The notes below the pieces were generated by a model, which searched no databases, had not been told where the DNA came from, and saw only the letters and a program-made list of their open reading frames with translations. The position numbers and the translations under genes are program-made. DNA of 64,000 nucleotides from an uncultured Candidatus Saccharibacteria bacterium (GTDB lineage Bacteria > Patescibacteriota > UBA1384 > CAILIB01), in the NCBI GenBank assembly GCA_964593885.1, contig CAZQKK010000002.1:157204-221203 (forward strand). Reading direction: 5' to 3'. The stretch's first letter is position 1, and the number at the start of each line of letters is the position of its first letter. This document shows positions 50,274 through 51,387 of the stretch, one piece after another.

Positions 50274-50312
50274 GACAAAAAGAAGAGCCCCCTCGCTCGA
50301 AAGCGAGAGGGC
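50274..50312 (-). terminator. rho-independent terminator after the high-GC gene
   Basis: Minus strand: ggccctctcgctttcgagcgaggggg hairpin followed by ctcttcttttt. Confidence 0.5.
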
Positions 50313-50336
50313 CTAGAATTGCACTGTGCCGCAGTG

Positions 50337-51248
50337 CTACAGGAGTTTGTACTCACCTGAACTCGAACCGCTGAAGCTGCCGTCAGCATGGCTCTTTCTT
50401 GCGAAAGAAACCTTGCCTTTCTCGGCCCAGTCAGGCTTGTCCGTAAACTCCGCGCCCCATTGGGCGGCAGCGGGGGTCCGCGCAATCCGAGCGTCTTCAC
50501 GCGCATCTCGCCTTTCGGCGGCGGCGTTAGCGGCTCGGAGTGAGGCGCCGTGCTGGATCAGGTTGAACAGGCCAACCATTACCAACACGACGACGACGAT
50601 GACTCCCAGGATGGTCAGAATCTGACCGGCGCCCTGGAGCGCTTCTTGAAACCAAATCGGGCTCATTTTCATTGCTCCTGTGCCCGTTACCGGCGGCACA
50701 ACCGGGGTTGTGGGAGGAACAGCCGGAGCTGTCCCACCGGTGGTAGTAGAACTGGCCAGTACCAGTGCCTCAAGGGCAGCTATTCTGGTTTGTAGCGCCG
50801 AGATATCCGACTCGTGCTTGCGCCCGAGACGAACACCTTCAGATGCGTACCCTCGAACTCTTGCGAGCTCAGGCTGCAGCACCCTTCGAACATGGTCCTC
50901 GAGGACGTCCAGTTGCGATTTGTAGCGCGCTGATACATCCTGGATGACCCTCAACGTACGATTCCTCACCGTCACGTTAGTGATCCGATGGGCGTTCTGG
51001 CGCTGACTTTCCAAAGTGTCAATCTTCGACCGAAGGTCGTTGATTTCACCCGTAAAGTCAGGAGTAGACTTCGAGGGAGCAACAGGGTCCGGGACGTTGC
51101 CTTGCGGCTGCGTCTGGGTTCCGGTTGCAACATCGGTGGGGTAGCCCACCTCGTCAGGGTCAACCGTAGTCAACCCGGTCTGCGCCGAAGCAATACTAAT
51201 CGTGGCCACCAGGGTGGCGAGGACGATATATTTCAACAAGTTTTTCAT
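50337..51248 (-). CDS. exported/membrane protein: signal peptide, coiled coil, Pro/Thr linker, C-terminal TM and basic tail (high-GC cassette)
   Basis: 303 aa from ATG 51248 (GAGGAA RBS). MKNLLKYIVLATLVATISIASA signal. TM ILTILGVIVVVVLVMVGLF. By-eye GC about 62% against a 53-57% core. Confidence 0.5.
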   Translation of the reverse strand: MKNLLKYIVLATLVATISIASAQTGLTTVDPDEVGYPTDVATGTQTQPQGNVPDPVAPSKSTPDFTGEINDLRSKIDTLESQRQNAHRITNVTVRNRTLRVIQDVSARYKSQLDVLEDHVRRVLQPELARVRGYASEGVRLGRKHESDISALQTRIAALEALVLASSTTTGGTAPAVPPTTPVVPPVTGTGAMKMSPIWFQEALQGAGQILTILGVIVVVVLVMVGLFNLIQHGASLRAANAAAERRDAREDARIARTPAAAQWGAEFTDKPDWAEKGKVSFARKSHADGSFSGSSSGEYKLL

Positions 51249-51358
51249 GTGCAAGTTCCTCGCCGCCTCCCCTGGCGGCTCTGTCAAATTGATTTAGCCT
51301 CGTTGCTGGAGGCGAAAGCTTGGGGATGTGTGCTTTCTCCTCATCAATTCAATGTGGC

Positions 51359-51387
51359 ACTTTACCACAAAAAGGCACTTTTGTCAA
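51359..51387 (-). promoter_or_regulatory. near-consensus sigma70 promoter TTGACA-N17-(TGG)TAAAGT for the high-GC gene
   Basis: Minus strand: ttgaca (51387-51382), 17-nt spacer, tggtaaagt (-10 at 51364-51359). About 100-nt leader to ATG 51248. Confidence 0.5.

Follow-up and report, generated by a model that had tools for sequence, protein, structure and literature searches.

Organization of the locus

The window analyzed here is a stretch of 64,000 nucleotides from a Patescibacteria (CPR) chromosome, and the features that concern us lie on its minus strand (Table 1). Gene X (50337-51248) encodes a protein of 303 aa, with the ATG at 51248, the stop codon at 50337-50339 and a Shine-Dalgarno sequence GAGGA (51261-51257) 9 nt 5' of the start, so the ORF and ribosome-binding site described in the earlier note stand as placed. 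The comparison set comprises 10 Patescibacteria loci related at family level, with ATPases 63-93% identical, and the distant locus L027, making 12 loci with the window. A genome-collection scan with an ATPase profile provided further distant loci, mostly of ~45% identity among the matches listed, which were used as outgroup.

The paralogy of the two ATPases of the conserved backbone can be seen in their repeats D1-D3. Against NCBIfam they gave TraD and CD1115-type matches, all under the cut-off. We found 1828 homologues, and all those with a named source belong to Patescibacteria/CPR or to an unclassified MAG. No VirB4, VirB6, VirB3 or relaxase was clearly recognisable in the window with Pfam and NCBIfam. 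In Patescibacteria, coupling-protein genes of the VirD4-like type number about two in each genome and lie for the most part away from virB4 (PMC12102498). The upstream gene pair is present in the window, L002, L004 and L210, and absent from L003, L086-L089, L211 and L212; in these loci TGT is followed directly by the slot gene or its region.

Table 1. Coordinates of the features at the gene X locus, counted from the first position of the window.
Feature	Position	Strand	Content or basis
Upstream gene pair, 608 aa and 98 aa	51428..53547	-	Low GC3, z -6.4 and -3.2
Conserved element AGCCTAAA	51393..51400	-	5 nt upstream of the -35 hexamer
Predicted sigma-70-type promoter, TTGACA-N17 (with TGn)-TAAAGT	51359..51387	-	Pattern match and conservation
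5' leader, ~105 nt	51249..51352	-	Start site predicted; fold and covariation
Protein X, signal peptide (aa 1-22)	51248-51183	-	Translation and hydropathy
Protein X, acidic tip (aa 23-65)	51182-51054	-	Translation and hydropathy
Protein X, long helix (aa 66-169)	51053-50742	-	AlphaFold2
Protein X, Pro/Thr spacer (aa about 166-197)	50741-50658 (aa ~170-197)	-	Translation
Protein X, transmembrane helix (aa 206-230)	50633-50559	-	Hydropathy and AlphaFold2
Protein X, cytoplasmic tail (aa 231-303)	50558-50340	-	Charge check
Intrinsic terminator, 12-bp stem with 8 GC pairs and a 4-nt loop, followed by CTTCTTTTTG	50276..50313	-	Hairpin 50313-50286
Extended -10 TGgTATACT	50238..50246	-	For the DUF5663-like gene and operon; read from sequence, inferred
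Hypervariable block, ~4.1 kb	46993..51095	-	X from ~codon 51 onward and three downstream genes
DUF5663-like gene	49862-50206	-	Inside hypervariable block
826-aa protein with Gly-rich hydrophobic segments	47375-49855	-	Inside hypervariable block
141-aa protein	46950-47375	-	Inside hypervariable block
Conserved backbone	40586..46942	-	Two paralogous VirD4/TraD-like ATPases and a 240-aa gene between them
Coupling-protein-like ATPases with DUF8128	44447-46942 and 40586-43687	-	Pfam TrwB_AAD_bind, T4SS-DNA_transf, TraG-D_C

Architecture of protein X

The earlier note had read protein X as a surface-exposed stalk, with a cleavable signal peptide, a coiled-coil segment, a Pro/Thr-rich spacer, a single C-terminal transmembrane helix and a basic cytoplasmic tail, and most of this reading holds. 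By sequence rules, the N-terminus (MKNLLK, a hydrophobic core and ASA/Q, the slash marking the predicted cleavage site) has the features of a Sec-type signal peptide, and the Gln at +1 is invariant across 11 slot proteins. The spacer and the transmembrane helix were both found. In an AlphaFold2 model from the single sequence, of low overall confidence (pLDDT 63, pTM 0.23), residues 66-169 (pLDDT 70-87) and 198-256 are helical and the remainder is disordered. The signal for the proposed coiled coil is weak: the heptad periodicity of 3.5 is not significant (p=0.33) and that of 3.67 is marginal (p=0.027). The tail is basic, though only mildly (net +2, pI 9.3). These sequence features, together with orthologues whose rods are helical, collagen-like or built from Pro/Thr repeats, support the proposed stalk architecture.

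We were not able to assign protein X to any family. Pfam and NCBIfam gave nothing above threshold, a word-indexed homologue search returned the self-match alone, and an exhaustive search of 1.84 billion representative proteins found only 3 partial homologues; no family could be built from these searches. Matches of residues 39-121 to PHROG families with unknown function (E 6e-4 to 6e-3) were taken as noise, as was an NCBIfam match to IncI1 TraP, which is at chance level (21.5 bits vs a cut-off of 135); beyond it, the protein has no homology to a named T4SS component. A lipobox ([LVI][ASTVI][GAS]C) is absent, with no Cys within the first 40 residues, and so are the type IV prepilin motif (G/F-T-L-I-E), a Gly-X-Y run of at least 4 triplets and a match to PF01391. 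VirB2-like pilins are small and have two transmembrane helices; protein X, at 303 aa and with a signal of the Sec type and a single such helix at its C-terminal end, is unlike them. A regular-expression search for the LPXTG-type sortase motif (LP.[TSA]G) found it in none of the 12 slot proteins.

Promoter, leader and terminator

The promoter that the earlier note had placed 5' of gene X is, in its TTGACA-N17-TGgTAAAGT form, the top promoter-like site in 40-55.5 kb (10 of 12 matches plus the TG), and its spacer holds an inverted repeat (ACAAAA/TTTTGT). In the window, TTGACA-N14-TGnTAnnnT has 8 matches vs 0.88 expected and AGCCTAAA-N5-TTGACA has 3 vs 0.38 expected, one of the latter (63092-63110) being located upstream of a DUF11 surface-protein gene. 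A GAGCCTAAAG-like sequence is found at the equivalent site in relatives. Most of the orthologous loci checked, L002, L004, L086, L087, L089, L210 and L211 among them, have kept the arrangement CTTGACAAAA-N6-TTTTGTGG 5' of their slot gene; the length of the promoter spacer is constant among relatives, and DNA similarity of the promoter region to L003 and L004 outlasts the divergence of the adjoining sequence. A metagenome scan with CTTGACAAAA-N6-TTTTRTGGT returned 120 matches, nearly all of them unrelated promoter-like sites and none preceding an X-type gene.

The predicted leader folds with a minimum free energy of -33.1 kcal/mol (z -2.3). In P1, 51352-51343 pairs with 51293-51284 and encloses two small hairpins, while P2 is a GC hairpin (51279-51262) directly before the Shine-Dalgarno sequence. 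An RNAalifold consensus of 5 loci has 25 pairs, and in 5 of these both partners have changed; 89% of the alignment cells are paired, vs 23-41% when the partners are slid, and the covariation score (0.248 vs 0.137) was matched by 0 of 500 shuffles. In L086 and L087, independent MFE folds give the same architecture from differing sequences. A covariance model recovered its 5 training sequences only and missed L086, L087, L089 and L211, so the covariation evidence consists of 5 sequences and these two independent folds. No Rfam 15 covariance model matched the region 49800-51800 at E<=1.

The hairpin and T-run proposed as terminator 3' of gene X proved to be the strongest terminator-like site of the region (folding z-score -3.0), and nearly all orthologous loci have a GC hairpin with a T-run after their slot gene. 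The DUF5663-like gene appears to have an extended -10 of its own, with TGgTACACT or TATACT-type elements at the equivalent position in L002, L086 and L087, so the slot gene would be bounded as a monocistronic unit. Since promoter, leader and terminator are kept in relatives, the suggestion of a module under separate regulation gains support, and the sequence supports gene X as a transcription unit of its own.

Origin of the high GC content

The strong GC contrast reported previously between gene X and its flanks (~62% against ~45%) was found again, although the value for the gene itself is lower, about 57.9-58.1%; GC of 62-64% is confined to its 3' third, and the flanking genes range from 44.1 to 48.9%. 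Gene X still ranks 1 of 52 window genes, and in a sliding analysis of the whole window only the 912-nt windows that overlap it reach 0.579 GC (z +2.4).

Most of this excess is a by-product of coding for a protein rich in Ala, Pro, Thr, Gly and Arg with ordinary codon usage. From the amino acids of protein X and the codon usage of the window, a GC of 56.5-57.1% is predicted, vs 58.1% observed. GC3 is 0.629 where 0.573-0.596 is expected (z +1.2 to +2.1), inside the spread of ordinary window genes (z -4.8 to +4.5). The codon-level outliers are instead the five genes flanking X, which have low GC3 (z -3 to -14). The contrast of 11.0 points between X and four flanking genes is made up of 6.8 points at third positions, where it is the flanks that are abnormal, and 4.2 points at second positions, attributable to the amino acids of X. 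The excess thus seems larger than it is because the neighbors have abnormally low GC3.

In some relatives, the slot gene has GC3 above the amino-acid expectation (L002 +3.6, L004 +3.8, L086 +8.6, L211 +3.1, L027 +16). Its deviation over the 12 loci ranges from -0.4 to +16 and is essentially never negative, while that of the neighbors always is. For this class of genes, amino acids therefore explain only part of the pattern, though for the window they suffice. Such a surplus could come from a process that actively raises GC beyond the effect of the amino acids, be it a recombination hot spot with GC-biased gene conversion, the multiplication of GC-rich repeat units or selection on the mRNA of a highly expressed gene. 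That the slot protein of L086 is made of Pro/Thr/Ala repeats would be in keeping with this. We regard an active process of this kind as unlikely: the deviation in the window is small and ordinary, no tandem repeats were found there, and the equally variable neighbors, with their opposite GC3 shift, argue against a simple effect of recombination.

Conservation of the slot and the question of insertion

In 10/10 related loci and in L027, the same slot is occupied by a gene running from signal peptide to membrane anchor, with TGT, or the 600/98-aa pair, on one side and the DUF5663-like gene on the other. In 12/12 loci no other gene of the cluster reaches its GC, and its excess over the locus ranges from 5.5 to 27 points. 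Homology between loci also holds for the downstream genes, of which 4/12 match Pfam DUF5663. Pfam Collagen (PF01391) is matched by 3 of 11 slot proteins (L002, L210 and L087), each with 10-20 consecutive Gly-X-Y triplets.

These observations bear on the suggestion that gene X is a later insertion, that is, a foreign high-GC cassette with its own promoter and terminator, recently placed into an older cluster of low GC. No other stretch of the window is as rich in GC, the gene is set between intergenic gaps and has signals of its own, and it is nearly an orphan in sequence searches. All of this could be read in that way, and tetranucleotide usage at the gene is indeed atypical (z -2.3). However, the tetranucleotide signal extends over the whole of 47.3-51.3 kb, and the synonymous composition of the gene is typical of its host. 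All related loci carry the slot gene with the same GC excess, exactly the outcome that the earlier note had named as refuting its reading. In addition, vertical conservation is seen for the promoter, the signal peptide and the tip; neither flanking repeats, tandem repeats, an integrase nor a tRNA was found at gene X, and searches among viral contigs and the records of phages and plasmids found no relative of it. The sequence data do not support gene X as a recent foreign insertion, and we consider that reading highly improbable.

An older acquisition is another matter. In a heuristic scan of 80 distant loci among the matches listed (~54 of them with at least 6 kb 5' of the ATPase), only L027 was flagged as carrying such a gene. 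As most loci with ATPases of ~45% identity, among the matches listed, are without it, the slot gene would have joined the locus in deep time. In L027, it lies immediately 5' of the DUF5663-like gene, and a profile comparison with protein X aligns only the signal peptide and the tip (probability 34%). A host-derived origin of this extreme-GC orthologue was considered and rejected: its slot protein has ~20 homologues, all metagenomic, and none indicates a high-GC host lineage. The source label of one of these homologues resembles a binning error.

A hypervariable block with alternative rods

Compared with its closest relative, L002, the window shows no DNA similarity within 46993..51095, with flanks 71-80% identical. 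The proteins of the block are 23, 38, 25 and 35% identical to those of L002, and outside it the values are 93% for ATPase 1, 85% for ATPase 2 and 91% for TGT. The boundaries of the block differ from the promoter and terminator of X, one edge being inside the gene. Against the ATPase backbone, the block pairs the window with L003 and L002 with L210. X has its signal peptide and tip in common with L002, L210 and L003, and its rod with L003 only; its transmembrane helix and tail recur in P0122 and P0124. Where X has a helical rod, sister strains have a collagen triple helix, as judged from sequence and PF01391, and the rod type (helical vs collagen) co-varies with the three downstream genes. This co-variation, discordant with the backbone, points to allele exchange or to a long-kept polymorphism. 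A diversity-generating retroelement and phase variation were also considered and rejected, since there is no template-like or tandem repeat and the promoter spacer is constant in length.

Comparison with known systems

The closest parallels in layout are the streptococcal M proteins and Scl1/Scl2. They too start with a signal peptide and a distal N-terminal region, continue as a rod and a Pro-rich segment spanning the wall, and finish at the C-terminus in a hydrophobic segment with a charged end; their sequences likewise vary strongly between strains. Their rods are helical coiled coils or collagen triple helices, and both helical and collagen rods occur in the slot studied here. They have no sequence homology to protein X, however, which is without LPXTG and ends in a true transmembrane helix with a 73-residue tail rather than a short charged stop-transfer; its coiled-coil signal is weak, and it belongs to an ultrasmall Patescibacterium. 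Bacterial collagen-like proteins (PF01391; BclA, phage tail fibres) resemble the orthologues of L002, L210 and L087, whereas X has its helical rod in that position and no Gly-X-Y run.

PrgB/PrgC of pCF10 offer a parallel in gene order, with a surface protein gene adjoining ATPases of the type IV secretion type. They differ in showing no homology and in that X would be transcribed alone, at a locus without recognisable VirB4, VirB6 or relaxase in the window. Gram-positive conjugation systems use surface adhesins in place of pili, and a published survey did not find PrgB-like or type IV secretion-linked adhesins in Patescibacteria (PMC12102498). The neighboring ATPases share with VirD4/TraD coupling proteins the P-loop, the TraG/TrwB domains and, in ATPase 1, an N-terminal transmembrane helix; they differ in scores far under the family cut-offs, the extra DUF8128, the pairing of the genes and their position away from virB4.

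Long structured 5' leaders occur on mRNAs of highly expressed surface proteins, such as E. coli ompA and those of S-layers. The predicted X unit resembles these in its strong promoter and terminator, its single cistron and its leader of ~100 nt, whose stable hairpins stop shortly before the Shine-Dalgarno sequence. No sequence or Rfam relationship links its leader to theirs. By this analogy the leader would most plausibly stabilise the mRNA; it might also act as a regulatory sensor.

Proposed role of gene X

Taken as a whole, we consider it probable that gene X is a separately transcribed, membrane-anchored, hypervariable surface-stalk gene in a fixed slot, whose high GC content follows mostly from its amino acids. 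The protein would be exported by the Sec pathway and cleaved at ASA/Q, exposing an acidic N-terminal tip on top of a helical rod of ~100 residues; the Pro/Thr-rich spacer would cross the cell wall, and a single C-terminal transmembrane helix would anchor the protein, leaving the 73-residue tail in the cytoplasm. A near-consensus extended -10 promoter, a structured leader of ~105 nt, the Shine-Dalgarno sequence and a strong intrinsic terminator would make up the unit, which may be highly expressed. Located at the upstream edge of the two-ATPase locus, gene X is the first element of the ~4.1 kb hypervariable block. We infer that protein X may be a surface fibre or adhesin for host contact or the envelope, working with that locus.

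The functional link to the ATPases is suggested by adjacency and co-variation, and in these small, highly syntenic genomes TGT and the ribosomal genes are equally syntenic. Gene X could be the gene of an ordinary, abundant envelope or surface protein that stands beside the ATPase locus with no functional tie to it. Its own promoter and terminator, by which it is not co-transcribed with the locus, would agree with this, as would the absence of such a gene from most of the distant loci with the same ATPases, among the matches listed, and the report that a coupling-protein homologue is non-essential in Southlakia epibionticum (PMC12102498). On the other hand, a bystander would not be expected to have a rod type that co-varies, against the backbone, with the DUF5663-like and large proteins, or a block edge inside the gene rather than at its terminator, and even the distant L027 retains the slot gene directly 5' of its DUF5663-like gene. 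We therefore find an unlinked neighbor somewhat unlikely, and prefer a stalk that works with the ATPase locus.

A much more specific version of this preferred reading is also conceivable, and we offer it as speculation that is quite unlikely to hold. Gene X and the three downstream genes, for the DUF5663-like protein, the large membrane protein with its Gly-rich segments and the protein of 141 aa, could be exchanged as a cassette that sets the specificity of an envelope machine, one peculiar to Patescibacteria and descended from coupling-protein ATPases. X would be the outward fibre for host recognition; by swapping helical and collagen rods together with the matching downstream partners, strains would change the host cells they can attach to, and an undescribed structured leader RNA would control expression of the fibre.

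The case is a useful negative regarding foreign high-GC cassettes, since it illustrates that a raw GC contrast can come from amino-acid bias combined with atypical neighbors. It also indicates that, within a family-level clade, a fast-evolving surface-stalk gene with transcription of its own has been retained at the edge of a widespread pair of coupling-protein-like ATPases. In the promoter and leader of X, both conserved, there is a concrete expression element for organisms that are hard to grow. Loci of this kind, in which a rod varies together with three downstream genes, are obvious places to look for what determines host attachment or host range in epibiotic bacteria.

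Genomic context and related loci

Genes for ribosomal proteins L1, L10 and L7/L12, peptidyl-tRNA hydrolase, a release factor and tRNA-guanine transglycosylase (TGT) lie 5' of the 303-aa gene (the slot gene), neighbours that indicate a chromosome rather than a mobile element. On the 3' side, a pair of paralogous ATPases, ATPase 1 (44447-46942) and ATPase 2 (40586-43687), bears coupling-protein (VirD4/TraD/TrwB) signatures. Their homologues (n = 1828) carry Pfam DUF8128, and all source-named ones come from Patescibacteria/CPR or an unclassified MAG. The two genes still have in common DNA segments of 73-79% identity, spaced by 3114-3117 nt, and the second ATPase is extended at its C-terminus by a Pro-, Gln- and Ala-rich region of about 250 residues. 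According to a published survey, a Patescibacteria genome has about two VirD4-like genes, mostly far from virB4 and functionally uncharacterised, and the phylum yielded no PrgB-like adhesins (PMC12102498). The 826-aa protein encoded between slot gene and ATPases contains several Gly-rich hydrophobic stretches of glycine-zipper type (e.g. GVAAVIGTGISVGVGVATGGAVPLAVALAGSAGGIGG) and may be a membrane-inserting component; a search for a family match to it found none.

Ten related loci (L002, L003, L004, L086-L089, L210-L212) were retrieved by way of the 831-aa ATPase, whose homologues there are 63-93% identical. They have a common gene order: TGT, (600-aa/98-aa pair), slot gene, DUF5663-like gene, large protein, ~130-aa protein (missing from the L211 gene calls), ATPase 1, ~200-aa protein and ATPase 2, the last scored only where the locus reaches that far. 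The slot is filled in 10/10 by a gene of 170-360 aa (two genes in L212). Counting the window and a distant locus, L027, the slot gene is the GC maximum of its cluster in 12/12 loci, with a margin of 5.5 to 14 points, and 27 in L027. The earlier note had proposed a later insertion; a slot filled with the same GC excess in all related loci is the outcome it had itself named as a refutation of that idea. Searches of viral contigs and of phage and plasmid records found no relative of the slot gene, and no repeats flank it. A recent foreign insertion is therefore rejected. Among the 80 matches listed with an ATPase about 45% identical, of which about 54 hold at least 6 kb 5' of the ATPase, a heuristic scan flagged a slot-type gene only in L027. 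The slot gene is therefore an ancient addition specific to this lineage rather than a recent one.

The 608-aa/98-aa pair that separates TGT from the slot gene (51428-53547), and not the slot gene itself, is the patchily distributed element: it is found in the window, L002, L004 and L210, being absent from seven loci (L003, L086-L089, L211 and L212).

Base composition

The slot gene ranks first in GC among the 52 genes of the window (z +2.1) and is its highest-GC 912-nt stretch, at 57.9% against 52.4% for the window and 44-49% for the flanking genes. The contrast noticed earlier is thus largely real but overstated, the estimate having been about 62%. Of the 5.4-point excess over the window mean, first, second and third codon positions contribute 0.8, 2.8 and 1.8 points; the gene ranks 2nd in GC2 and only 15th in GC3. 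Its own amino acids with the codon usage of the window predict 56.5-57.1% GC (58.1% observed), and its GC3 deviation (z +1.2 to +2.1) is within the spread of ordinary genes. The codon-level outliers are instead five genes around it (46950-50206 and 51428-53547), all with low GC3 (see table). Against the four nearest genes the contrast is 11 points, 6.8 of them from third positions. Atypical tetranucleotide usage likewise extends beyond the GC peak, spanning all of 47.3-51.3 kb.

The low GC3 of the five neighbours recurs in their orthologues at all related loci; fast evolution and exchange among lower-GC lineages are both possibilities. Across loci, the GC3 of the slot gene essentially never falls below expectation, and exceeds it by a very wide margin in L086 and L027. 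A GC-raising process may act on this class of genes, with a small effect in the window. The slot gene of L027 (3748-4782), a locus from a distant MAG of Patescibacteria with the label Saccharibacteria, has 69% GC and GC3 of 0.79 (z +16), against 42.5% GC for the locus.

Features of the slot gene, its product and neighbouring genes
Feature	Position	Strand	Detail
Slot gene ORF, 303 aa	ATG 51248 to stop 50337-50339	minus	from window sequence
Shine-Dalgarno-type GAGGA	9 nt 5' of slot-gene ATG	minus	
Slot-gene promoter	51387-51359	minus	TTGACA-N17-TAAAGT, TG at -15/-14
Slot-gene terminator	50313-50276	minus	12-bp GC-rich hairpin and T-run, folding z -3.0
Extended -10 of next gene, 3' of terminator	50246-50238	minus	TGgTATACT
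Signal-peptide-like N-terminus			MKNLLK, hydrophobic core, ASA↓Q
Acidic disordered tip	residues 23-65		
Single long predicted helix	residues 66-169		
Pro/Thr-rich spacer	C-terminal to helix 66-169		
Transmembrane helix, one	residues ~206-230		
C-terminal tail	73 residues		mildly basic, net +2, pI 9.3
826-aa gene	47375-49855	minus	GC3 z -13 to -14
608-aa gene	within 51428-53547		GC3 z -6.4 to -7.4
DUF5663-like gene	49862-50206		GC3 z -4.7 to -5.1
141-aa gene	46950-47375		GC3 z -3.9 to -4.6
98-aa gene	within 51428-53547		GC3 z -3.2 to -3.8

Transcription signals and structured leader

The promoter and terminator described in the earlier note are both present, the former as the top promoter-like site across 40-55.5 kb and the latter as the strongest terminator-like site of the region. 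The pattern TTGACA-N14-TGnTAnnnT has 8 matches in the window against 0.88 expected, and on our reading of their positions in the ORF list these sit just 5' of genes, which makes this the normal promoter type of the organism; the slot-gene promoter is a perfect copy of it. Most loci keep a core of CTTGACAAAA-N6-TTTTGTGG with a -10 element after it, DNA similarity persists at the promoter even where the upstream gene differs, and nearly all loci have terminator hairpins with T-runs 3' of the slot gene. With promoter, leader and terminator kept across relatives, the other reading of the note, a separately regulated module, is supported.

From promoter to start codon runs a leader of about 105 nt (51249-51352, minus), where a long-range stem, P1, encloses two small hairpins and the GC hairpin P2 ends just 5' of the Shine-Dalgarno. 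In the five alignable loci, both partners have changed in 5 of 25 predicted pairs, paired cells make up 89% (23-41% in slid controls), and the covariation score is above all 500 shuffles. The L086 and L087 leaders fold into the same architecture with different sequences. No Rfam family matches the leader. We read it as a conserved leader that, by analogy, most plausibly stabilises the transcript of a surface-protein gene with strong expression. It may represent a new cis-acting RNA element in surface-protein genes of Patescibacteria.

A second promoter of the same AGCCTAAA-N5-TTGACA...TGTGGTA layout is located at 63069-63110 (minus), about 150 nt 5' of a gene for a 642-aa DUF11-repeat surface protein (60992-62920, GC3 z -4.7); the 409-aa DUF11 gene that follows has its own promoter match at 60975-61003. 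Two plus-strand ORFs overlapping the slot gene, 49854-50360 (168 aa) and 50988-51407 (139 aa), are antisense shadows of minus-strand genes and not for annotation.

Variable block and rod types

Between the window and its closest relative, L002, identity is 93% for the ATPase and 91% for TGT, against 23% for the slot protein and 38, 25 and 35% for the three genes 3' of it. DNA similarity ends near codon 51 of the slot gene, at 51095, and restarts at 46993, so that the promoter and leader are kept, as are the signal peptide and tip, while a block of about 4.1 kb has diverged. The rod is collagen-like in L002 and L210, with 18-20 Gly-X-Y triplets, and helical in the window and L003. For the rod, the DUF5663-like protein and the large protein, the window pairs with L003 and L002 with L210; for the ATPases, it pairs with L002. 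Given this discordance, the block was exchanged or kept as an old polymorphism, and the rod travels with the downstream genes. The transmembrane helix and tail of the slot protein are common instead to two short proteins from elsewhere.

Slot protein architecture and proposed role

The proteins encoded in the slot share one plan across the loci. Their signal peptide ends in A/G↓Q; after it come an ectodomain that is a variable rod or of low complexity, a spacer rich in Pro, Thr and Ala, a single transmembrane helix and a tail. The signal peptide, Pro/Thr spacer and single C-terminal transmembrane segment noted earlier are all seen in the window protein, and its tail is basic, if mildly. A long helix is predicted where a coiled coil had been proposed, but no significant heptad periodicity was found, and 'coiled coil' therefore stays a hypothesis. 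The L027 slot protein has about 20 homologues with two alternative tail types; P0145, a 400-aa relative of this type, contains the prepilin N-terminal methylation domain PF07963, a hint that some rod modules may be common to pilin-like proteins.

Export of the slot protein would be through Sec, with cleavage after ASA; the C-terminal helix would then anchor it in the membrane, leaving the tail intracellular. The spacer would span the wall, with the rod keeping the conserved acidic tip about 20-25 nm out (length estimated from residue counts). A fibre for contact or attachment would fit the rapid evolution, the rod swaps and the link to a variable block next to the coupling-protein-like ATPases. 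An abundant envelope protein unrelated to the ATPase locus is a less likely alternative. As a new protein of a familiar kind, the slot gene adds a variable fibrillar surface protein without a family to an understudied phylum.
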